From Pseudomonadota bacterium (GTDB taxonomy: Bacteria > Pseudomonadota > Alphaproteobacteria > Rhizobiales > Stappiaceae), in assembly GCA_039195965.1 (NCBI GenBank), contig JBCCVB010000012.1, forward strand, positions 1,172 through 65,171: a DNA stretch of 64,000 nt. Reading direction: 5' to 3'. The position numbers were made by a program, and so were the translations under genes. Positions 6,018 through 23,682 of this stretch are shown piece after piece. Numbering within the stretch: the first letter of the stretch is position 1; every line of letters begins with the position of its first letter. The notes below the pieces were generated by a model that saw only the letters and a list, made by a program, of their open reading frames with translations, was not told where the DNA came from and did not search any database.

Positions 6018-6620
6018 TCACAGCTTGCGATACCAAACCTGCATTGGCTTCTCGGTTTCCTCATCCTGGCCGACGTCCTGCCATGGAAACGTCACGACAA
6101 CGTCCTGCAACTTTTCATAACCTCGCTTGCGCCAGAACGGATCCAGCGGCCGGTAGTCCGACGGCCGCATTGGATGGTCGTCCGGTCGAATGACAGCGCA
6201 AAACACAGCTTGGGAAAACCCCAACCTTCTGGCGTGAGCCTCTCGTTCTTCAAAGAACCTGTGACCGATCCCCTGACCACGATAAGCCGGATCAAGAACT
6301 GACTCCGCGAGGTAGAAGATATCTGCGGGGTCAAAGCCGCGTTCTTCAAGCGGCGAACGGAACGCCTCAAATTCATCACCCAGAGGCTCACCCGTTGCGG
6401 CACCGACAAGCTGTCCCCGATCGTAGGCTCCCACGATCAACGCCCCTTCCGTTTCAGCGTAGCGCTGCAGATATTTCTCCTCGTAGGCCATGGACCCTTC
6501 GTAGAGATACGGCCAATCCCTGAAGACCTCGATCCTGAGCCTGGCGAGGTCGTTCAGGGCCGCTTTCAACTCTTCGCCCGTTAAGCTTTTGATTTCCACC
6601 GGCACGGCTAACCCTCTCAT
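6018..6620 (-). CDS. GNAT family N-acetyltransferase
   Basis: LARLRIEVFRDWPYLYEG and acetyl-CoA motif YRGQGIGHRF. Confidence 0.85.
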   Translation of the reverse strand: MRGLAVPVEIKSLTGEELKAALNDLARLRIEVFRDWPYLYEGSMAYEEKYLQRYAETEGALIVGAYDRGQLVGAATGEPLGDEFEAFRSPLEERGFDPADIFYLAESVLDPAYRGQGIGHRFFEEREAHARRLGFSQAVFCAVIRPDDHPMRPSDYRPLDPFWRKRGYEKLQDVVVTFPWQDVGQDEETEKPMQVWYRKL

Positions 6621-8216: not shown

Positions 8217-8359
8217 CGGCATCCGTCGAACCAAGATTAGATGCAGCCCGCGCACAATAGTGCGGGCTACACATTTACGTTAACTCCCAATTTTCTCTCT
8301 ACATTTTCCTCCAAATTGCTAGAGTGCAGCGAACGCCTGAAGTCTGAATTGAGGTTCGC

Positions 8360-9637
8360 GTGCCTGGCACCACCGACAATGATACCGGAGCATTTGCGAT
8401 CTCTTCCTCAGCTCCGGAACGCACGCCGGATGTGATCACGGCGCTTGATGTCCTGATCAATGAGCAGGCCTTCAAGAGCGGTGTCGGCCGTTGGGATTTT
8501 TTGCGATCCCTGAATGAGATTGACGCGAGCCACTGGGCAAAGATCCTGAAGGGCAACGCGCGCTTGACCCCGGGAAAATTCCGGCTCCTGAACAAGGCGC
8601 TGAGCGAGAACAAGGCCCAGGCAGACCACCTCAGTGAGCTCTACAACAGCTACTATTCCAGTTTTAAGCGCTCATCGGGCAAGCGTTCCCGAAAGGAAAA
8701 ACCGGATGACCTGACCGGTGGACTCGAGCAGCTTCTCGAAAAGCTTGCGGTGCGTCGCGAAGACTTACGGGAAAGCCTGGTCTTTCAGAGTACAATCCGG
8801 CAAGCGATCCGCCTTCCAAGATCTTCCGGAAATTTCGCTGAAGCCAAACGTAATGGCCGCGTTCTGGTGCACGGTCTGCACAACAACCTGTACCGCGTAA
8901 ATTCCGACAAGGTCGAAGAAGAGGTGATCGACCTGATGACCGCGCTTTGTTACGCGGCCTATCAGACTGCGGATGCAGATCTTTTCAGTTGCGTCGTGAA
9001 GAATTGTCACCTGCCGGGCCAACCGGAAAAGACAACTTGCTTCATCAAGGCCGCCCAATTGCACCTGCAACGTCGGTTCAACGAAGTTTTCCTCGGGGCA
9101 CCGATCGAGCAGCTGCTTGACCTGCAGTCCGAAGCCAGGTCCCTGGCGGAAGACTTTCAGGAAAGCAGCGAAGAACGACTGCCAATGGCCGTCATGATCA
9201 AGCAGAATTTCAGCCGCCTGTTTCTTCAGACCGGCGAGGCGCTTCAACGCGACCGCATCACTCTGCAGCTAGCCGTTGAATCCAGCGACAGGGACGGCGA
9301 CAGATTCACGGAATTCCAGGCCCTGTGCCGGGCTTACCTGGCAAAGTGGTATCTGGTCAGCGGAGACCTCGACACCGCCCAAACCATTCTGGCAGACGCA
9401 ATCTCAAGGCTGGACAGAAAGCTCGGCAAATTTCACTGGGCCAGGGCATGTGTAAGGGAGTATCAGGCAGAGTGCATCCTGCAGCAGATCAAACTCACTT
9501 CGCCGTCCGAGGATCTCGCCGAGTCCTGCCTCGGGTACCTCAATGACGCTCTGGCAAACATGCGGGTTTGCGAAAACGTCGTCCAGACAAAGCTTCTGGA
9601 AAGCAAAGCTGCACAGGTTCAGAACCTTTTGATCTAA
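8360..9637 (+). CDS. Hypothetical protein; possible N-terminal XRE-like HTH and C-terminal helical (TPR-like) repeats
   Basis: 425-codon ORF filling an otherwise empty gap and followed by a plus-strand terminator. Domain calls are by eye only. Confidence 0.6.
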   Translation: MPGTTDNDTGAFAISSSAPERTPDVITALDVLINEQAFKSGVGRWDFLRSLNEIDASHWAKILKGNARLTPGKFRLLNKALSENKAQADHLSELYNSYYSSFKRSSGKRSRKEKPDDLTGGLEQLLEKLAVRREDLRESLVFQSTIRQAIRLPRSSGNFAEAKRNGRVLVHGLHNNLYRVNSDKVEEEVIDLMTALCYAAYQTADADLFSCVVKNCHLPGQPEKTTCFIKAAQLHLQRRFNEVFLGAPIEQLLDLQSEARSLAEDFQESSEERLPMAVMIKQNFSRLFLQTGEALQRDRITLQLAVESSDRDGDRFTEFQALCRAYLAKWYLVSGDLDTAQTILADAISRLDRKLGKFHWARACVREYQAECILQQIKLTSPSEDLAESCLGYLNDALANMRVCENVVQTKLLESKAAQVQNLLI

Positions 9638-9822
9638 AACGGCTTTGCCACATATCTGCCATCTGAAATGCGATTTGCGCCGGAATTTTGCCAGAATTTT
9701 GCCATAGCGATACGGCGCTCATTGACTATTCTGACAGGGTACTTGCTGCCTCGGTGTATTTGAGGCCCTTTTTGTAGCAAAGCATTTTTCCCACTGAACT
9801 TTTTTATTAATACTTTTAAGGC

Positions 9823-9855
9823 AACGCCCAGCGGCTCGCCGCTGGGCGTTTTTTT
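9823..9855 (+). terminator. Intrinsic terminator
   Basis: AACGCCCAGCGG-ctcg-CCGCTGGGCGTT followed by a T-run. Confidence 0.85.
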
Positions 9856-9874
9856 ATGCGTAAAGAAATGACAA

Positions 9875-10972
9875 TCAGTCTCTGGCTTCCAGCCAGGTCT
9901 GTGCCCGCGTCATATCTTTTGAGACAAAACCCTCGGCCAGTTTCTTACCAACAACGGCGCCGAACTTGTACCCGTGCCCGGAACAGGCAGAAACAACCGT
10001 TGCCTTGCCGTTGGTTGTCGCGAAAAAATGCTCGTCAGCAGTGAATGTATAGGCGCAAGTGACGACTTCATCGACGCGATACTCACCGATCCGGGCTATT
10101 GGCGGCGAGAAGTAATCGCGCAGTTGCTCGCCCTCGCCCTCCTTCGCGGTTCTGTCCTGATCCGGCTCCGCCTGGTATCTGTGAATTCCAGCTCCGAATT
10201 TCAGGCCGGTTCCCGAGACTGGAGGCAGAACGTAACCGTCATTGGCACCGCCCGGGTCCAGGATGGCGGGAGCCTTCTCCCAAGACTCACGCAAGTCCGC
10301 CGGCGGTGTCAGGTAAACAACCGCAGTTCGGTAAGTATTCAGGCTGATCTGCAACTCGGGGAAAAGCCCGAGGGTCCAGGCGCCTGCTGTTACGATCACA
10401 TGATCGGCAACATGCTTGCTGCCATCCGCCAGCACGACCGCGCCGGCAGAACTGTCGACGGAGGTTGCCTTGTTGTTTTCCAGAACTTGAGCACCGTTCG
10501 CGATAAGCCAGTCCCGCAGATCAGCTGCAATTCTCTGGCAAAGCAGCACGCCACCTTCGCTGCTGACAGCTCCGTAGCGAATGGTCGAGGGATCAATAAA
10601 CGGGAACCTTTCAGCAGTTTCCTCAGGCGACATGTCCTCAAACGGATAGCCGCCATCAATCAGGCCATTCCGATAAACTTCACCGCCGTCGCCCGGTCTC
10701 TGCGACAGCAACATGAAGCCGGTATCTGCGAGGTGCTTACTGCCAAGATCGTCCCACATTTCGTCCCAGGCCTCATAGGCAGCACCTATGCGGCGCTGAT
10801 AGCCGCCCTGGCTACCATAAGCCCGCCGAATGATCCGGTGCTGATCACCTGATGCGGATAGTGGATTGGGAATGGGGCCTTGTTCGACAAGCGTCACCGG
10901 TACGCCCCGTTTGGTCAGCGCCCAGGCAGTGGAAAGACCGGAGATTCCGGCCCCGACAACAATTGTGCTCAT
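9875..10972 (-). CDS. FAD-dependent oxidoreductase, monomeric sarcosine oxidase (MSOX/SolA)-like
   Basis: GAGISG dinucleotide motif, SGDQHRIIRRAYG, TCAYTFTADEHF (Cys at the covalent-FAD position of MSOX) and SGHGYKFG. Confidence 0.85.
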   Translation of the reverse strand: MSTIVVGAGISGLSTAWALTKRGVPVTLVEQGPIPNPLSASGDQHRIIRRAYGSQGGYQRRIGAAYEAWDEMWDDLGSKHLADTGFMLLSQRPGDGGEVYRNGLIDGGYPFEDMSPEETAERFPFIDPSTIRYGAVSSEGGVLLCQRIAADLRDWLIANGAQVLENNKATSVDSSAGAVVLADGSKHVADHVIVTAGAWTLGLFPELQISLNTYRTAVVYLTPPADLRESWEKAPAILDPGGANDGYVLPPVSGTGLKFGAGIHRYQAEPDQDRTAKEGEGEQLRDYFSPPIARIGEYRVDEVVTCAYTFTADEHFFATTNGKATVVSACSGHGYKFGAVVGKKLAEGFVSKDMTRAQTWLEARD

Positions 10973-11948: not shown

Positions 11949-13064
11949 TTAGATCACGAGCTGAAAGACAAGACCGGAAAGAACCGCGCCGACAAAACCA
12001 AGTCCGAGATACATGGCGAAGACCTGAGGCTTCACCAGGGACCAGACCGCTGCCATTGCCGGAATGGAGCTGACCGCACCCGCGATCATGAACGCCATTG
12101 CGGCACCGGCGCTCATGCCCTGATCCATAAGACCTGCAAGCAAGGGCGGTGCAACGTAGCTGTTAAGATAGGCCGGCATCCCGACGAGAGCCGAGATGAC
12201 AATCGACCCGAGGCCGTCTCCTCCGACGACACCTGCGATCAGATCTGCCGGCACATAGGTGACCAGCGCTGCTTCCAGCACATAGGCAAGTGCCAGCCAC
12301 TTCACCAGAAAAAGCGCATTTGACTTCAACTCGCTGGAGAACCTGTCCTTGCGCTCTTCTTCCTGCCAGAATTTCCAGACAGGCCGCCCCGTCAGCGGGG
12401 AAGCTCCGCAGCCGCAGCCTCCTGCGGATGAGCCGACCTTGACCGGATTGGCAAAAGCGCCGGTGCGCAAAAGCATCGAAATCAGAAAACCGCCAAAGAG
12501 CCCGAGAGCAACCGCGAAAGCGGCCTTGCCGATGGCAAACGGCCAGCCCAGAGCACCTGCCGTGATCAGCAGCGTCGGCGGATCAATCAACGGTGATGAC
12601 AACCAGAAGGCCATGATCGCGGACAACGGCGCTCCGACAGCAAGAAGACCTGCGATAAAGGGAATAACTTCACAGGAACAGAAGGGTGCCAGTCCGCCGA
12701 ACAGCGCGGCCAGAAAGATCGCCTGTGTTTCCCGTCCTTCAAATGCCTTGCCGACGTAAGCCTCCGCACCGGCTGCCTTGAGCCAAGCAATCAGTGCAAC
12801 AGCAAAAGCGATATAGGGAAGCGTTCCGGCAAAGGCCGAGATTGCGAAGGAAACAAACCCGGTGAACTGAGTCTGATCGAGCAGGAGAACCAGGAGCGGC
12901 CCGCCGATGACGATCGTCCATGTCGAAAGGAGATAGTCCCTGCCCGGGAAATTCTTCCAAGACAATTTGGGTTTGGTCGGTGCGCAACTGGTTGATTTCG
13001 CCGAAGAACAGCAAGTCTCCCCTGCACTTTCCGCCACTGCAATGTTCTCAAGAGTGTCCGCCAT
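11949..13064 (-). CDS. ArsP/DUF318-type permease
   Basis: Two internally repeated TM halves, with PFCSCEVIP and AFWLSSPLIDP, and Cys clusters TCC and GCGC. Confidence 0.85.
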   Translation of the reverse strand: MADTLENIAVAESAGETCCSSAKSTSCAPTKPKLSWKNFPGRDYLLSTWTIVIGGPLLVLLLDQTQFTGFVSFAISAFAGTLPYIAFAVALIAWLKAAGAEAYVGKAFEGRETQAIFLAALFGGLAPFCSCEVIPFIAGLLAVGAPLSAIMAFWLSSPLIDPPTLLITAGALGWPFAIGKAAFAVALGLFGGFLISMLLRTGAFANPVKVGSSAGGCGCGASPLTGRPVWKFWQEEERKDRFSSELKSNALFLVKWLALAYVLEAALVTYVPADLIAGVVGGDGLGSIVISALVGMPAYLNSYVAPPLLAGLMDQGMSAGAAMAFMIAGAVSSIPAMAAVWSLVKPQVFAMYLGLGFVGAVLSGLVFQLVI

Positions 13065-13083
13065 CTGAGATCTCCTTTGGCGC

Positions 13084-13386
13084 CTACGGACGAATGCCGT
13101 CTTCGTCTGCGCAACATTCCTTGAGAATGTAGCCAGCCAGGTTCTCCAGGTGATCGAACGCCGCCCGGTTGATCACCGACCGCCCGTCCTTTTCCTGCTG
13201 GACCAGCCCTGCGGAGGATAGAAACTTCAGATGGTGTGCCAACGTGGACGCAGCCATTCCCGTGCGGGACTGGATATCACCAACGGTCAATCCTTTGTGC
13301 CCTGCCTTCACCAGTGTAAGCACCACCTGCAGCCGGGCTTCGGAGCCCAGCGCAGCAAACCCCTGAGCCGCTTCTTCCAGAACCAT
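13084..13386 (-). CDS. ArsR/SmtB family repressor with C-terminal vicinal Cys pair
   Basis: FAALGSEARL...STLAHHLKFLSSAGLV...ILKECC. ATG 13386 has a GAGG RBS. Confidence 0.9.
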   Translation of the reverse strand: MVLEEAAQGFAALGSEARLQVVLTLVKAGHKGLTVGDIQSRTGMAASTLAHHLKFLSSAGLVQQEKDGRSVINRAAFDHLENLAGYILKECCADEDGIRP

Positions 13387-19420: not shown

Positions 19421-19712
19421 GACATCTCACAGAAGCAAATTTGCAATTCGGCGGGAGTTTGCCCGCGCCGCGAACAGCACGCAAGAGGGACCGAAAAGTC
19501 TGGTTTACAGATCTTCACAAATTCCAGTCCAAAGCCATCGTGTCTCTTGTTCTGCAAATTCAGCGCAAAGCGTCATAGTTGCAATTTAGCAACATATTGT
19601 TGTATTTTAGCACCAACACTCATTGAGTGAGTATTTTCCCCTTGCACCTATGACCCGTTTCAACCTAAGACTTCGTCATCGGTCTCAAGACTGGTTCAGA
19701 TATCAAAGGTAT

Positions 19713-19728
19713 AGGCAATTTTCTTGCC
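19713..19728. promoter_or_regulatory. Candidate sigma54 (-24/-12) promoter
   Basis: AGGCAATTTTCTTGCC has GG-N10-GC with TT before GC. The site is palindromic, so its direction is ambiguous. Confidence 0.4.
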
Positions 19729-19790
19729 GCCCGCATGGTTCGGCATTGTCGTTTCCATGTACGGATACTGTATCAGAAGGTCGCGCGTAA

Positions 19791-19864
19791 TCGCATGAAG
19801 TTCATTGGTTGAACGCCAGGTATGTTGCCTGGAGGAAACAGGTTCGATTCCTGTCTTGCACGCA
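19791..19864 (+). ncRNA. tRNA-like unit 1 (pseudo-tRNA / tRNA mimic)
   Basis: D arm GTTC-attggtt-GAAC, anticodon arm CCAGG-tatgttg-CCTGG and T arm ACAGG-TTCGATT-CCTGT. Only 4 of 7 acceptor pairs form, there is no U33 and no CCA. Confidence 0.7.
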
Positions 19865-19938
19865 ACGGATAGCTCAGCTGGTAGAGCATCGGACGATTAA
19901 TCCGACGGTCGCGGGTTCAACTCCCGCTCCAAACGGCA
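19863..19938 (+). ncRNA. tRNA-like unit 2 (tRNA-Asn-like pseudo-tRNA / mimic)
   Basis: TA-GCTC-agctggta-GAGC, TCGGA-cgattaa-TCCGA, cggtc and GCGGG-TTCAACT-CCCGC. Only 3 of 7 acceptor pairs form, position 33 is G, and it ends GGCA. Confidence 0.8.
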
Positions 19939-19973
19939 AACCTATGGGTTCGGGTTCGACTCCCGGTCCGCCA
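19939..19973 (+). ncRNA. tRNA-like unit 3 (3' fragment: mini-hairpin + T arm + CCA end)
   Basis: AACC-tatg-GGTT, then CGGG-TTCGACT-CCCG, then gTCCGCCA. Confidence 0.6.
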
Positions 19974-20014
19974 TTTTATGGCAACAGCTTCAGGTGCTGT
20001 CTACAAAATTGGGA

Positions 20015-20295
20015 TTTGAAGAGGGCTTGTGACGGACCGGCTCTGCCTTTGCGCGACACGCACGAAGACAGGCCCGCCCTTCACCGGGAGCTCTTGTCCG
20101 GTCTTTGATCAAGGCCACGCCGCGTCGTCGCCGGGACTGTCTGTTCTCGAACGGGCACAACCTGCATTGATGCCGCAAAGCCCGCTGTTCAGAGATCCGC
20201 CGAGTGCCCTGCGCACTCTTCAGGTCTCCACATTCACACCCTCCGCCCTGTCTCGGGAGCGGTCGGTTTCCACCTACCTCCAACCCCTCTTTGAA
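20015..20295 (+). ncRNA. Putative ~280-nt structured non-coding RNA upstream of the SPFH gene
   Basis: The ends pair (TTTGAAGAGGG 20015-25 with CCCTCTTTGAA 20285-95; GACCG 20035-39 with CGGTC 20260-64) and enclose several nested helices. There is no credible ORF. Confidence 0.55.
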
Positions 20296-20344
20296 CAACG
20301 AAAGGACATGCCACGTGCCTTAGCGCAATGGAAGGAATATCGAA

Positions 20345-21505
20345 ATGATGGCTTTTCTTGATAAAATTCGCGGCCGCAGCCGCGTCGTGATCTACGAAAA
20401 CGAACGAGCGGTTCATCTGGTTAAGGGTGAACTGCAAGGCATTCTCGTACCTGGTGAGCACTACCTGAAAAATGGTAGGGGCACTCTGATGGTCGAGCGT
20501 CAGGACCTGACGATGCCGCTGTTCCGGTCTGAATATGAAAAAGCGCTTTTCGACAAGCTTCCCGAAGTCGCAGAAGAGCACTTGACCGTCGTCCGAACGA
20601 AACCGGGCGAAGTGGCCGTAGTGGAACGGGATCATCGCGTCTACAGGGTACTCGGTCCGGATCAGCAGCTTGTGCTCTGGACCGATGCCGGTCCTTGGAC
20701 ATGGACTGTCATTGATACAGCGTCTGAGCCGGAACTTTCCCGCAAGATGTTGCTTCGCCTCGGTGATGCAAAGCTGACGCAGCACTTCGAAGTCATCCAG
20801 GTGACCGAGGGCAGTGTAGCGTTGTTGTTCGTCGACGGCGTCATGACCAGGGTCTTGAACGCCGGTCTCCACGCTTTCTGGAAAGCCGGAGGAACAATGA
20901 CCAAAAAGCTCATCGACCTGAAGCGGCAGAGCCTTGACGTTACCGGCCAGGAAGTCCTGACGCTCGATCGGGTCACCATACGCATCAACCTGTCGGCCGA
21001 ATACCGGGTGGTAGATGCTATAAAGGCTGCCCAAGAGGTGAAAGACTTCTCCGACACGTTGTACCGGGCCCTGCAAATGGTGTTCCGCAAGCAACTCGGC
21101 GCCTTGAAGCTTGACCAGATCCTCGAGCGCAAAGGCGACGTGAACGCGGAGGCTGAAGCGTGGATCAAAACCGAAATGGCCAAGATCGGAGTTGAGGTCT
21201 TCGACATCGCCCTGAAGGATGTAATTCTTCCCGGTGAAATGCGTGAGATCCTCAACAAGGTGGTGACCGCAGAAAAGGAAGCGGAAGCCAACGTGATCCG
21301 GCGCCGCGAAGAAACGAACGCGACACGTTCGCTTTTGAACACCGCAAAGGTCATGGCCGAAAACCCGGTCATGCTGCGGCTGAAGGAGCTTGAGGCTCTG
21401 GAATCCATTGCGTCCAAAGTGGACCGCCTGACGGTTCACAACGGGACGAGCGGCCTGATGAACGATCTTGTTAGGTTACAGGATGAAAGCTCGGCAAAAG
21501 CCTGA
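20345..21505 (+). CDS. Slipin-family SPFH/band-7 protein
   Basis: SQLDVTGQEVLTLDRVTIRINL-like SPFH core and C-terminal RRREETNATRSLLNTAKVMAENPVMLRLKELE. Three N-terminal beta-rich repeats, no TM helix. Confidence 0.9.
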   Translation: MMAFLDKIRGRSRVVIYENERAVHLVKGELQGILVPGEHYLKNGRGTLMVERQDLTMPLFRSEYEKALFDKLPEVAEEHLTVVRTKPGEVAVVERDHRVYRVLGPDQQLVLWTDAGPWTWTVIDTASEPELSRKMLLRLGDAKLTQHFEVIQVTEGSVALLFVDGVMTRVLNAGLHAFWKAGGTMTKKLIDLKRQSLDVTGQEVLTLDRVTIRINLSAEYRVVDAIKAAQEVKDFSDTLYRALQMVFRKQLGALKLDQILERKGDVNAEAEAWIKTEMAKIGVEVFDIALKDVILPGEMREILNKVVTAEKEAEANVIRRREETNATRSLLNTAKVMAENPVMLRLKELEALESIASKVDRLTVHNGTSGLMNDLVRLQDESSAKA

Positions 21506-21511
21506 CAAACG

Positions 21512-21540
21512 ACGGCGCGGAATTGTCCGCGCCGTTTTCT
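21512..21540 (+). terminator. Intrinsic terminator between the slipin gene and kptA
   Basis: ACGGCGCGGA-attg-TCCGCGCCGT-TTTCT. Confidence 0.7.
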
Positions 21541-21564
21541 ATCTAACTGATTTCATTCAGACCC

Positions 21565-22113
21565 ATGAAAAACGACACAAAAATATCCAAGCAAATCTCG
21601 TTCTGGTTGAGACACAAACCGGAAGATGCCGGGTTGCGATTGACCAGTGACGGCTGGGTGCAGGTGAAAGAACTGCTAGGGGCATTCGACCGAACACAGA
21701 TGCCCTGCAGCCTCCAACAGTTGCAGCAGATCGTCGAGACCAACGACAAGAAACGGTTCGAGTTTTCCGAGGATGGTACTCTGATCCGCGCAAGACAAGG
21801 GCATTCAATCAGCATCGACCTGCAGCTGCCCCCAACCGAACCGCCGACCATCCTCTACCACGGGACAGCCACCCGGTTTCTATCCGGCATCCTGAAGGAA
21901 GGTTTGAAACCGATGAACCGTCACCACGTTCACTTGTCTGCCGATGCCGACACCGCTCGAACTGTGGGAGCAAGGCACGGCAAACCCGTTGTCTTGGTGG
22001 TGACATCTCAAATCATGCATGCGGCTGGCTTCGAGTTCTTCAAAACGGAAAATGGTGTCTGGTTGGTGGATCAGGTCCCACCGGGCCACCTGTCCTGCCT
22101 GGACAGCGATTGA
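21565..22113 (+). CDS. kptA: RNA 2'-phosphotransferase (KptA/Tpt1)
   Basis: SKQISFWLRH, DKKRFEF, RARQGHS, LYHGT, RHHVHLS and NGVWL. Confidence 0.95.
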   Translation: MKNDTKISKQISFWLRHKPEDAGLRLTSDGWVQVKELLGAFDRTQMPCSLQQLQQIVETNDKKRFEFSEDGTLIRARQGHSISIDLQLPPTEPPTILYHGTATRFLSGILKEGLKPMNRHHVHLSADADTARTVGARHGKPVVLVVTSQIMHAAGFEFFKTENGVWLVDQVPPGHLSCLDSD

Positions 22114-22127
22114 GCTCACACTCTATT

Positions 22128-22190
22128 TAAAAAGAAAAATCTTTCTTTATTAATCGCTGGTGATATAAAGAAAGAAATTTCTTTCTTTAT
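22128..22190. promoter_or_regulatory. Tandem operator-like palindromes upstream of the MFS gene
   Basis: Perfect 26-bp palindrome ATAAAGAAAGAAATTTCTTTCTTTAT (22165-22190) and a degenerate copy at 22128-22150. Confidence 0.6.
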
Positions 22191-22200
22191 TGAGGGTGTC

Positions 22201-23682
22201 ATGTCCATAAGCTCGCCAGCTCAGGTCCCAGCCAGCGCCGCGTCCAATTCAAGCCTGTTCGCTCCTGCCCGATTGGCAGGAACGCTCGCACTTGTCCTTG
22301 GCGTCGGCTCCCACGCCATCAATGGATTTGTAACCACGGCCGTTCTACCGGACATCATTCGCGACTTAGGTGGTCAGAACCGGGCCTTCTGGGTGTTCAG
22401 TACGTTTGAGATGATGGCCATTCTGGCTGGATGTCTGACTGGAGCCACGAAACAGCGATTCGGAGCCCGGTATCCTTTTCTGATCGCAACCTTGTTGCTT
22501 GCCACAGGCTCCGTATTGGCCGGTTTGAGTACATCACTGGCAGGCTTGATCGCCGGCCGCGCCTTACAGGGCTTTGGTGAAGGCATGATCATTGCTCTTT
22601 GCTATTCCCTGATACCCGATCTTTATCCGAGTAATATCGCCCCACGCATCTTTGCCCTCCTCGCCGGTGTCTGGGCGCTCGCAGCTGGAATCGGCCCCGT
22701 CTCTGCAGGATTGTTGACGGAGCTCTGGTCCTGGCGCGCAGCCTTTCTTGTCAACATACCTTTGACTTTGCTGCTGTTCGGATTGATGAACTCGGCCTTG
22801 CCCGCCCGTGCAACATCCGCAACCACCTCCCGCCAGCTAAAGGCTACAGGTGGCACAAGTCGGCTGGCGTTGCGATTTGGGCTGCTTACCGTCAGCATTT
22901 TTCTGCTCACCGTGATCGGTGAGATTCATCAGCCCATACCCTTGGCCGCCACAATTGTGACTGGCCTGCTTGCAGCCGGTTTGCTTTTGAAGCTTGACGG
23001 CGCCAGCGCGAAACACCTCTTTCCCCGGGAGGCCTTCCGGGTTGGAACTGTGGTTGGTTTGGGAACGTGGATCATCTTCCTGATTTCCGTCGTCGCGGCG
23101 ATCAGGGCGGTTTTCATCACTACGATGGGTCAGGTCCACTGGGGTCTCAGTGTCACCCAGGCAAGTTATGTAGCTGCCGGATTGGCCTTTTCCTGGTCGT
23201 TCTTTGCGTGGATTTCGTCGCGTGCGCCGACCCGGCAGAGAGAATTGACTTATCTGGCGATCGGTCCGTTTCTGATTGCCACCGGTATGTTGCTGACCGC
23301 TGTCGGGATCGCGACCTCATCGCTTGTCACGTTTTCTTTGGCAGCCATTGTCGCCGGCGCGGGTCACGGCTTAAGCAACCAGATCCTTATGCGGTCCCTG
23401 ATGTATTCCGCCAAAGGTGGAGACCAGGACCTCGTCTCCAGCATTTTGCCAACGCTCTCTTCTGCGGGAATCGCCATTGGCGGCGGATTGACCGGTCTTA
23501 TCGCCGTCATGACGGGCCTTGTTTCGCCAGGCGAAACCAATCTGATCACGGGCGATGCGATAGCCCGCTCAGGCCCGACTGTCTTCTACATCAATGCGGC
23601 TCTGATGATCATCCCCGCCGCTGCAATGCTGATCCTTCGGCACCGCCTTGTGCGTGCCGAAGCGGTCGGTCAAACCGACTAG
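22201..23682 (+). CDS. MFS transporter (drug:H+ antiporter-like, about 14 TM)
   Basis: 493 aa hydrophobic protein with GRALQGFGEG and WRAAFLVNIP motifs. Confidence 0.9.
   Translation: MSISSPAQVPASAASNSSLFAPARLAGTLALVLGVGSHAINGFVTTAVLPDIIRDLGGQNRAFWVFSTFEMMAILAGCLTGATKQRFGARYPFLIATLLLATGSVLAGLSTSLAGLIAGRALQGFGEGMIIALCYSLIPDLYPSNIAPRIFALLAGVWALAAGIGPVSAGLLTELWSWRAAFLVNIPLTLLLFGLMNSALPARATSATTSRQLKATGGTSRLALRFGLLTVSIFLLTVIGEIHQPIPLAATIVTGLLAAGLLLKLDGASAKHLFPREAFRVGTVVGLGTWIIFLISVVAAIRAVFITTMGQVHWGLSVTQASYVAAGLAFSWSFFAWISSRAPTRQRELTYLAIGPFLIATGMLLTAVGIATSSLVTFSLAAIVAGAGHGLSNQILMRSLMYSAKGGDQDLVSSILPTLSSAGIAIGGGLTGLIAVMTGLVSPGETNLITGDAIARSGPTVFYINAALMIIPAAAMLILRHRLVRAEAVGQTD

Follow-up and report, generated by a model that had tools for sequence, protein, structure and literature searches.

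A conserved structured RNA with two tRNA mimics precedes the slipin gene of a stand-alone alphaproteobacterial cassette

Can a tRNA-mimicking RNA and a Band-7 protein encoded next to it form a unit that does without the ligase RtcB? This question is raised by a cassette on the + strand, at approximately 19640–22113, of a stretch of 64,000 nucleotides (nt) from a Roseibium (Labrenzia) bacterium of the family Stappiaceae (Alphaproteobacteria; assembly GCA_039195965.1, contig JBCCVB010000012.1). We refer to the whole stretch as the window, and coordinates are those of the window unless another contig or locus is named. An original prediction, made from the sequence alone, described the cassette as a sigma54-driven set of three tRNA-shaped units, a folded RNA, a soluble SPFH protein (hereafter referred to as slipin) and the RNA 2′-phosphotransferase KptA, without RtcB or Ro60. 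Here we report a computational follow-up, in which sequence and covariation analysis revealed the leader ahead of the slipin gene to be a structured RNA of approximately 670 nt. Two tRNA-like modules and a closed 218-nt domain of this RNA are followed, on the same strand, by the slipin gene, a terminator and an intact kptA gene (Table 1). The RNA–slipin pair is conserved among relatives and does not need RtcB.

Pairs of this kind have been noticed before. A Band-7 protein with its b7a-tRNA, the tRNA associated with band 7, was predicted computationally by Burroughs and Aravind in 2016 (Nucleic Acids Res 44:8525), as related in bioRxiv 10.1101/312249 and PMC13404743. In Pelobacter carbinolicus, the 'mutant tRNA-Asn' Pcar_R0061 is flanked by rtcR and a stomatin-like gene (Aklujkar et al. 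2012, PMC3543383); reciprocal mutations keep its cloverleaf, U33 is lost, the anticodon has changed from GUU to CAG and the 3′ end is buried, and it was proposed there to serve RNA-active enzymes as a guide or substrate (PMC3543383). PaFlo8 of P. aeruginosa is located in an rtc locus (PMC13086221). YrlA, a tRNA-mimicking non-coding RNA, is a trans-acting partner of Ro60 (Rsr) (Chen et al. 2014, PMC4201824; bioRxiv 10.1101/312249). Given the 2016 prediction, as related in those papers, and the Pelobacter instance of 2012, the kind of system is not new; the cassette of the window is a derived, stand-alone alphaproteobacterial member of the b7a-tRNA/Band-7 class.

Conservation and architecture of the RNA

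A scan for slipin in one genome per species retrieved 282 relatives, and the best 80 of these 282, which come from Roseibium/Stappia (73–92% identity) and Mesorhizobium (about 65% identity), were used for the analysis of close loci. Nearly all 80 loci carry a tRNA-like stretch 370–500 nt upstream of the slipin start, and the second tRNA-like module (module 2) is present in 79 of them, the exception being a contig with too little upstream sequence. From more distant proteobacteria, 15 loci were fetched and 11 scanned with Rfam, which returned tRNA-like matches just upstream of slipin in all 11. The RNA elements are thus conserved 5′ of slipin homologues, as the original prediction demanded. The slipin subfamily itself occurs in 20 of the 401 sampled genomes of the phylum, representing 13 of 212 genera.

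RNAalifold, run separately for Roseibium and Mesorhizobium, yielded an identical architecture for the two genera: a 5′ domain, tRNA mimics 1 and 2, two small hairpins, the closed 3′ domain, a variable hairpin and a conserved block adjacent to the ribosome-binding site. The 5′ domain is homologous between the two genera, and 12 of its 18 RNAalifold pairs show compensatory changes. The small hairpins at 19970–19982 and 19984–20000 are matched in Mesorhizobium by GGCC-ugauaa-GCC and CACC...GGUG. Preceding them, a T-arm-like hairpin (19950–19966) is found in about half of the Roseibium loci, with other hairpins in its place elsewhere. The final 45 nt or so before the slipin start codon are among the best-conserved blocks and contain a CCUU...AAGG pairing, which could occlude the ribosome-binding site of slipin. 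No terminator was found between the RNA and the co-oriented slipin gene, by terminator scan or in the alignment. A coding role for the leader, in the form of a 110-amino-acid open reading frame at 20029–20361, was rejected, since indels in relatives come in lengths not divisible by three and the start codon is unconserved.

Table 1 Coordinates of the cassette features in the window
Feature	Position	Strand	Evidence and remarks
Predicted sigma70-type promoter	19642..19670	+	TTGCAC 19642–19647, 17-nt spacer, CTAAGA 19665–19670; read from sequence
5′ domain of the RNA	19680..19792	+	Contains hairpin 19714–19728 and helix 19730–19738 / 19755–19764 around a small hairpin
tRNA-like module 1	19793..19859	+	Rfam RF00005 tRNA, 34.5 bits (gathering score 29)
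tRNA-like module 2 (GGAUAGCUCAG...)	19867..19930	+	Rfam RF00005, 46.2 bits; most conserved part of the RNA
Three small hairpins	19950..20000	+	T-arm-like 19950–19966; GCCA-uuuua-UGGC 19970–19982; ACAGC-uucaggu-GCUGU 19984–20000 (alignment, RNAalifold)
Closed 3′ domain, 218 nt	20011..20228	+	Outer 13-base-pair helix GGGAUUUGAAGAG / CUCUUCAGGUCUC; 7 helices in total
Variable hairpin, then conserved Shine–Dalgarno-proximal block (GAAAGGACA.GCCA.GUGCCUUAGCGC.AUGGAAGGA)	20229..20344	+	Alignment
slipin, soluble SPFH/Band-7 protein of 386 amino acids	20345..21505	+	Pfam PF01145 Band_7, 104.7 bits
Intrinsic terminator	21511..21536	+	Scan; 11-base-pair GC-rich stem, then U tract
kptA, Tpt1-family RNA 2′-phosphotransferase of 182 amino acids	21565..22113	+	PF01885, 180.6 bits; NF002014, 247.6 bits against a cut-off of 239 (NCBIfam equivalog)

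The closed 3′ domain comprises 54 pairs, 22 of which show compensatory double changes in an alignment of 17 Roseibium/Stappia sequences. Its cells are paired in 93.6% of cases, compared with 39–49% when the partners are slid, and none of 500 shuffles reached the observed value. The domain measures 212–219 nt in Roseibium/Stappia and 209–216 nt in Mesorhizobium, and a covariance model built from the Roseibium/Stappia sequences alone (R1) locates the Mesorhizobium domain in the position expected from synteny, with 24–48 bits and E values down to 4e-11. When both genera are aligned to the model, 40 of the 54 pairs show double changes, in an alignment that is fitted to the structure and hence biased towards it. 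A search of 301 genomes of the order with the two-genus model returned six genomes from four genera, with one match each, and all six matches lie 80–120 nt 5′ of a slipin start. No Rfam 15 family matches the domain, even at E values up to 10. As modelled, the 3′ domain is a feature of the Hyphomicrobiales; in the distant loci, either its homology lies beyond reach or the domain is lineage-specific. The folded element of approximately 280 nt that had been placed at 20015–20295 stands as a conserved domain downstream of the mimics, with the shorter limits given in Table 1.

The reverse complement of the inner 3′ domain (20086–20211 on the − strand of the window, and likewise in L007, L009, L013 and L022) also scores with the model, at 18.9 to 33 bits, because the helices of the domain are nearly palindromic. 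Its strand was set by synteny and by the higher scores on the + strand. In two stand-alone alphaproteobacterial loci (L090 and L091), the leader is about 600 nt long, and between the GC-rich RNA and slipin, about 100–250 nt before the slipin start, lies an AT-rich stretch with a palindrome (TTGCACTGCAACAAAATAATTGTTGCAATCG in L090), a possible operator or second promoter.

Two tRNA mimics that lack decoding features

The tRNA-like hits in the window sit 415–550 nt upstream of slipin. In module 1, the D, anticodon and T arms are intact, four of the seven acceptor pairs remain, the loop reads UAUGUUG with A33, and there is no CCA. Module 2 retains an acceptor remnant of 3 base pairs (bp) and has the anticodon loop CGAUUAA, with G33 and the anticodon AUU. 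The Rfam alignments of the two modules begin at model positions 3 and 5, inside the acceptor stem, and ARAGORN called neither as a tRNA gene in the window. What marks a decoding tRNA, namely an acceptor stem of 7 bp whose 3′ end is free, an anticodon loop of 7 nt with U33 and a call by a tRNA finder, is missing from these modules. Relatives differ in detail: in the module 1 homologue of Mesorhizobium, the acceptor stem has its full 7 bp and ACCA is encoded, but the anticodon loop counts 6 nt. Across loci, the acceptor remnant of module 2 extends to at most 3–6 bp, another base often takes the place of U33 and some loops have 6 or 8 nt. Two of the three tRNA-shaped units first described consequently persist, as both modules pass the Rfam tRNA gathering score, whereas the third shrinks to the non-conserved, T-arm-like hairpin at 19950–19966.

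Two possible affiliations of the mimics were considered and rejected. The YrlA model (Rfam RF02553) scores 25.4 bits on the locus, against a gathering score of 69, and no TROVE gene is found in the locus, which argues against membership in the YrlA or Y RNA families. A derivation of module 2 from tRNA-Asn, as in Pelobacter, is not apparent either, as its nearest true tRNAs in the genome are those for Lys, Thr and Arg, with no clear affinity to Asn.

The anticodon of the second mimic varies in a frozen scaffold

In close relatives, ARAGORN calls mimic 2 as a tRNA for Asn, Leu, Ile, Met, Thr, Lys, Arg or Ser, and its anticodon loop occurs in 30 distinct sequences among 79 loci. The 54 Mesorhizobium loci alone hold nine anticodons and 17 loop variants, which require at least 23 anticodon changes on the slipin-gene tree (shuffled labels average 29.5). 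Positions 34 and 35 changed 18 and 14 times, while the ten positions of the anticodon stem did not change at all; in the adjacent gene, the 119 four-fold degenerate sites, a synonymous yardstick that codon bias depresses, changed 4.2 times on average (median 3, 95th percentile 13). Nucleotide diversity at positions 32, 34 and 35 is 0.51, 0.67 and 0.50, compared with 0.20 at the four-fold sites, with a few other unpaired or covarying columns of the leader being as diverse as the anticodon. The data show that mimic 2 presents a freely varying or often re-set anticodon within a frozen scaffold, a behaviour of which we found no description in the literature searched. Positive selection on the anticodon is not proven, as those other leader columns are about equally diverse, and a lack of constraint or an exchange of alleles is a possible cause of the variation. 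An intramolecular codon that covaries with the mimic anticodon, as in a T-box, was also sought and discarded, the top mutual information with any other leader column being 0.38, which equals the background.

Predicted structure of slipin

As originally proposed, slipin is a soluble SPFH protein: Pfam identifies the Band_7 domain, and no hydrophobic stretch of transmembrane grade was found in its sequence. A family profile compared with the PDB matched stomatin with an E value of 1e-31 over residues 188–358, covering the SPFH domain and a long helix, and matched QmcA and HflK as well. An AlphaFold2 model with a mean predicted local distance difference test score of 83.4 comprises three N-terminal β repeats, the SPFH domain and a 60-residue C-terminal helix. 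Foldseek aligned this model with stomatin, HflK/C and prohibitin over about 240–280 columns, and with the major vault protein over 457–481 columns, which include the N-terminal repeats and span the full extent of slipin. The elements of cage-forming SPFH proteins, an SPFH domain and the long helix that follows it, are both predicted in slipin, and by analogy the protein may form a ring or cage. The window slipin is 34–40% identical to slipins encoded in rtcR–rtcB loci of beta- and gammaproteobacteria. The PADLOC library of defence systems contains no match for slipin or KptA.

The RNA–slipin pair without RtcB

In the 15 distant loci, rtcB is adjacent to the cassette in 11 and a divergent rtcR is present in eight. 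Clear sigma54 promoters of the form TGGCAC-N5-TCGC precede the RNA in the distant canonical loci, as in CTGGCACG-N4-TCGCT. The distant loci with rtcR, sigma54 promoters and rtcB therefore point to the ancestral arrangement, whose order is rtcR / sigma54 promoter – 5′ RNA – mimic 1 – mimic 2 – 3′ RNA – slipin – rtcB. In one distant slipin–rtcB locus (L088), at least eight full-scoring tRNA genes lie just upstream of the cassette, at 8253–10110 and 13035–13107.

In the alphaproteobacterial loci, including that of the window, neither rtcB nor rtcR stands beside slipin. The genes flanking the window cassette include no RtcB, and the locus holds no gene for Ro60 or another TROVE protein. Moreover, nine of the 11 alphaproteobacterial carrier genomes lack RtcB altogether. 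Within the sampled genus, the presence of slipin and that of RtcB are uncorrelated: an RtcB of the RtcR-operon type occurs in three of the 12 other sampled genomes, and two of the three slipin carriers are without RtcB. The RNA–slipin pair therefore does not need RtcB. The stand-alone unit of RNA and slipin that had been postulated is thereby upheld, with an independence from RtcB that goes further than had been supposed.

The genome of the window is itself not devoid of RNA-repair genes. On contig C8 (70000–82749, equivalent to locus L084), a complete operon of the RtcR type spans L084:2717–8271, in which rtcR (CARF and sigma54 AAA+ domains, 255.8 bits) is divergent from a Ro60-like gene (vWA_Ro60, 59.1 bits; TROVE, 25.1 bits), YrlA-like RNAs and rtcB. 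The three tandem YrlA-like RNAs (L084:6131–6259, 6280–6408 and 6422–6556) score 20, 50.3 and 62.4 bits, all below the gathering score of 69. The rtcB gene (L084:6847–8271, equivalent to C8:76846–78270) contains a single in-frame TGA at codon 292, in the context EALQLI-TGA-KWTKANH. Three other Roseibium genomes encode uninterrupted orthologues of it (472 amino acids, 82–83% identical), and the TGA is therefore, as judged by this comparison, a strain-specific nonsense mutation or a sequencing error. A second RtcB, of 398 amino acids, is encoded on contig C61 (L085:2946–4783), where it is coupled to a PrfH-like release factor with an RF-1 domain, in an RtcB–PrfH pairing. The search of the genome for rtcB, rtcA, rtcR and rsr, which had been suggested as a check, thus turned up rtcR, a Ro60-like gene and two rtcB genes on other contigs; RtcA was not found. 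The description 'without RtcB/Ro60' is accordingly true of the locus and not of the genome, which has rtcR, the Ro60-like gene and rtcB together with the YrlA-like RNAs.

A predicted sigma70-like rather than a sigma54 promoter

The promoter of the cassette was predicted from its sequence to be of the sigma70 type (Table 1). Its −35 and −10 blocks align with TTGCAT-N17-TATCAA in Roseibium and CTTGCG-N17-CTATAG in Mesorhizobium; a generic promoter scan, based on the consensus of Escherichia coli, did not call the site. The place that had been read as a sigma54 promoter, at 19713–19728, contains GGCAA-uuuuc-UUGCC (19714–19728), which fits GG-N10-GC but folds as a hairpin. Of 79 homologous loci, ten keep the GG-N10-GC pattern, whereas 70 are predicted to form a hairpin of 4 bp or more at this place. 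The GG..GC spacing varies between 8, 9 and 10 among relatives. In the closely related L005 the sequence is GGUAG..UUACC, which preserves the pairing but not the −12 GC, and Mesorhizobium has GGAGC-uuucg-UCUCC, without the GG/GC pattern. The supposed sigma54 site is therefore rejected as a small hairpin inside the RNA. With the candidate −24/−12 site unconserved and rtcR located on another contig, control of the locus by sigma54 and RtcR is not supported.

kptA as an accessory neighbour

KptA is intact, as had been stated. It scores above the NCBIfam equivalog cut-off, and its residues R16, H17, R75 and R119 align with the catalytic tetrad of the solved Tpt1 structures 7kw8 and 6ede. The intrinsic terminator that had been noted between slipin and kptA recurs as a hairpin directly 3′ of slipin in each of the 19 Roseibium/Stappia loci, regardless of whether kptA is present. 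A kptA gene follows slipin in 14 of these 19 loci, 59 to 297 nt away, and in one of the 15 distant loci; it is absent from the roughly 60 Mesorhizobium loci. Two Roseibium genomes without RtcB have their sole kptA directly after slipin. One carrier from another family has its kptA 520 kb away, and the Mesorhizobium carriers have no kptA in the genome. Because the linkage is limited to Roseibium/Stappia, the terminator is conserved and the gap is variable, kptA is a clade-specific recurrent neighbour, accessory and not core, and it is probably transcribed as its own unit. These results do not support an operon shared by slipin and kptA.

Between kptA and a gene for a major facilitator superfamily transporter (22201–23682), two imperfect palindromes, AAAGAAAaaTCTTTCTTT and AAAGAAAGAAATTTCTTTCTTT, occupy positions 22131–22195 and resemble a tandem operator.

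Discussion

Comparison with known systems places the cassette closest to the b7a-tRNA/Band-7 pair. As in that system, a tRNA-like non-coding RNA lies directly 5′ of, and co-oriented with, a soluble Band-7 gene resembling the major vault protein, and tRNA-like modules likewise precede the slipin homologues of beta- and gammaproteobacteria, which are situated between rtcR and rtcB. The window locus differs in having neither rtcB nor rtcR, which most alphaproteobacterial carrier genomes also lack, in its putative sigma70-like promoter in place of a sigma54 one, in the embedding of its two modules in a three-domain RNA of approximately 670 nt and in having kptA as a neighbour. Pcar_R0061 is, by contrast, a single instance in a complete operon of rtcR, a stomatin-like gene, rtcA and rtcB, and neither a larger RNA nor a variation of the anticodon between species is described for it (PMC3543383). 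YrlA and Ro60 likewise combine a tRNA-mimicking module with the gene of a scaffold protein, often in RtcR-controlled rtcB operons. However, the window RNA has no Ro60-binding stem, the partner has an SPFH and not a TROVE fold, and the separate YrlA-like RNAs of the same genome (50.3 and 62.4 bits) lie next to the Ro60-like gene on C8. Finally, slipin shares with the eukaryotic vault, composed of the major vault protein and vault RNA, the predicted β repeats, SPFH 'shoulder' and long helix, as well as a structured RNA partner. It is smaller (386 residues and three repeats, compared with roughly 860 residues and nine), its cage is a predicted one, and the RNA, unlike vault RNA, is tRNA-like and would be co-transcribed with the protein gene.

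We favour, with a probability of about 55%, an RtcB-independent member of the b7a-tRNA/Band-7 class in which a sigma70 promoter drives a single unit, comprising the approximately 670-nt structured RNA with its two non-decoding mimics and slipin as the partner of this RNA. Transcription would begin near the predicted promoter and continue as one unit to the terminator; slipin would assemble as a stomatin- or vault-like ring or cage, and the co-transcribed RNA would be its dedicated partner. The mimics, unable to decode, would present the surface of a tRNA to factors that bind tRNA, for example ribotoxins or enzymes of processing and repair, so that the particle may buffer tRNA damage or act on it. 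Within this clade, the pair works without RtcB, with kptA as a neighbouring accessory gene. Several considerations weigh against this reading: we infer the promoter, the co-transcription and any processing of the RNA from sequence; the RNA could act in cis alone; covariance model R2 did not detect a region equivalent to the 3′ domain in the distant rtcR–slipin–rtcB loci, which leaves the tRNA-like core as the only universal part; and the literature searched contains neither a phenotype nor biochemistry for any member of the family.

The main rival to this ribonucleoprotein takes the RNA to be purely a cis-acting leader or riboregulator of slipin, with the tRNA-like modules as built-in sensors. 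The 3′ domain and the Shine–Dalgarno-proximal block would be remodelled when RNase P or a tRNA-directed nuclease cuts the RNA or a tRNA-binding factor attaches to it, and this would switch the translation of slipin or the stability of its mRNA. Such a leader would explain why the RNA always lies 5′ of slipin in the same orientation without an intervening terminator, why the last 45 nt or so, with their potential to occlude the ribosome-binding site, are so well conserved and why every genome-wide match of the 3′ domain keeps its short distance to a slipin start. Nevertheless, three domains and 670 nt conserved with tRNA-like precision far exceed known leaders in size, the same modules occur in operons that are already regulated by RtcR and a sigma54 promoter, and the analogous YrlA mimics act in trans with Ro60 (bioRxiv 10.1101/312249). 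We consider a purely cis-acting function unlikely; the two roles do not exclude each other. The model of the original prediction, a minimal stress-induced operon of RNAs, slipin and kptA under sigma54 and RtcR, could draw on the fit of GGCAA-N5-TTGCC to the sigma54 pattern, on the RtcR encoded on C8 and on the recurrence of kptA 3′ of slipin in the clade, including the two RtcB-free genomes in which no other kptA exists. It is made very improbable by the sparse retention and variable spacing of that pattern, the compensatory change in L005 that destroys the GC and the absence of GG/GC from Mesorhizobium, and further by the scarcity of the RtcR-operon RtcB in the genus and among its slipin carriers and by the conserved terminator and variable gap that split slipin from kptA. 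Scarcely credible is the idea that the modules have no function connected with slipin, being either tRNA genes, ordinary or in decay, or an inert relic of a disrupted rtc operon. In many relatives, ARAGORN does call tRNA genes at the corresponding position, and module 1 of Mesorhizobium has kept its acceptor stem and ACCA, but the truncated acceptor of module 2, its replaced U33 and its odd-sized loops, the absence of changes at ten stem positions beside the 18 at position 34, the compensatory changes throughout the RNA and a linkage to slipin that spans classes of Proteobacteria all contradict it.

A more specific version of the ribonucleoprotein would make the mimics anticodon-specific baits, a suggestion that we regard as quite unlikely in its entirety. 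The anticodon of module 2 would be re-set repeatedly (to CAU, GUU, UAG, GAU, GAG, UGU, UUU, ACG and others) to match whichever tRNA the enemies of a lineage target with the anticodon nucleases of phage-defence, colicin, contact-dependent inhibition or type VI secretion-type systems; a slipin mini-vault would hold the bait and soak up or sense the ribotoxin without RtcB, and the KptA of Roseibium would act on the RNA or on damaged tRNAs. Were this true, it would provide the first physiological context for the bacterial Tpt1 enzyme, which otherwise has no known substrate.

Collectively, our findings identify the slipin/tRNA-mimic pair, predicted in 2016, as a widespread ribonucleoprotein candidate. 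As the pair is retained under purifying selection in genomes without RtcB, its core job cannot be that of a cofactor of the RtcB ligase. Its RNA is not a lone tRNA look-alike but a three-domain molecule, whose 218-nt domain is supported by covariation and not represented in Rfam 15. The recurrent neighbourhood of slipin and kptA offers a lead on the role of bacterial Tpt1. Furthermore, nothing in the otherwise frozen module changes as fast as the anticodon of the mimic; such a pattern is expected of a specificity determinant in a conflict and provides a concrete, testable handle.

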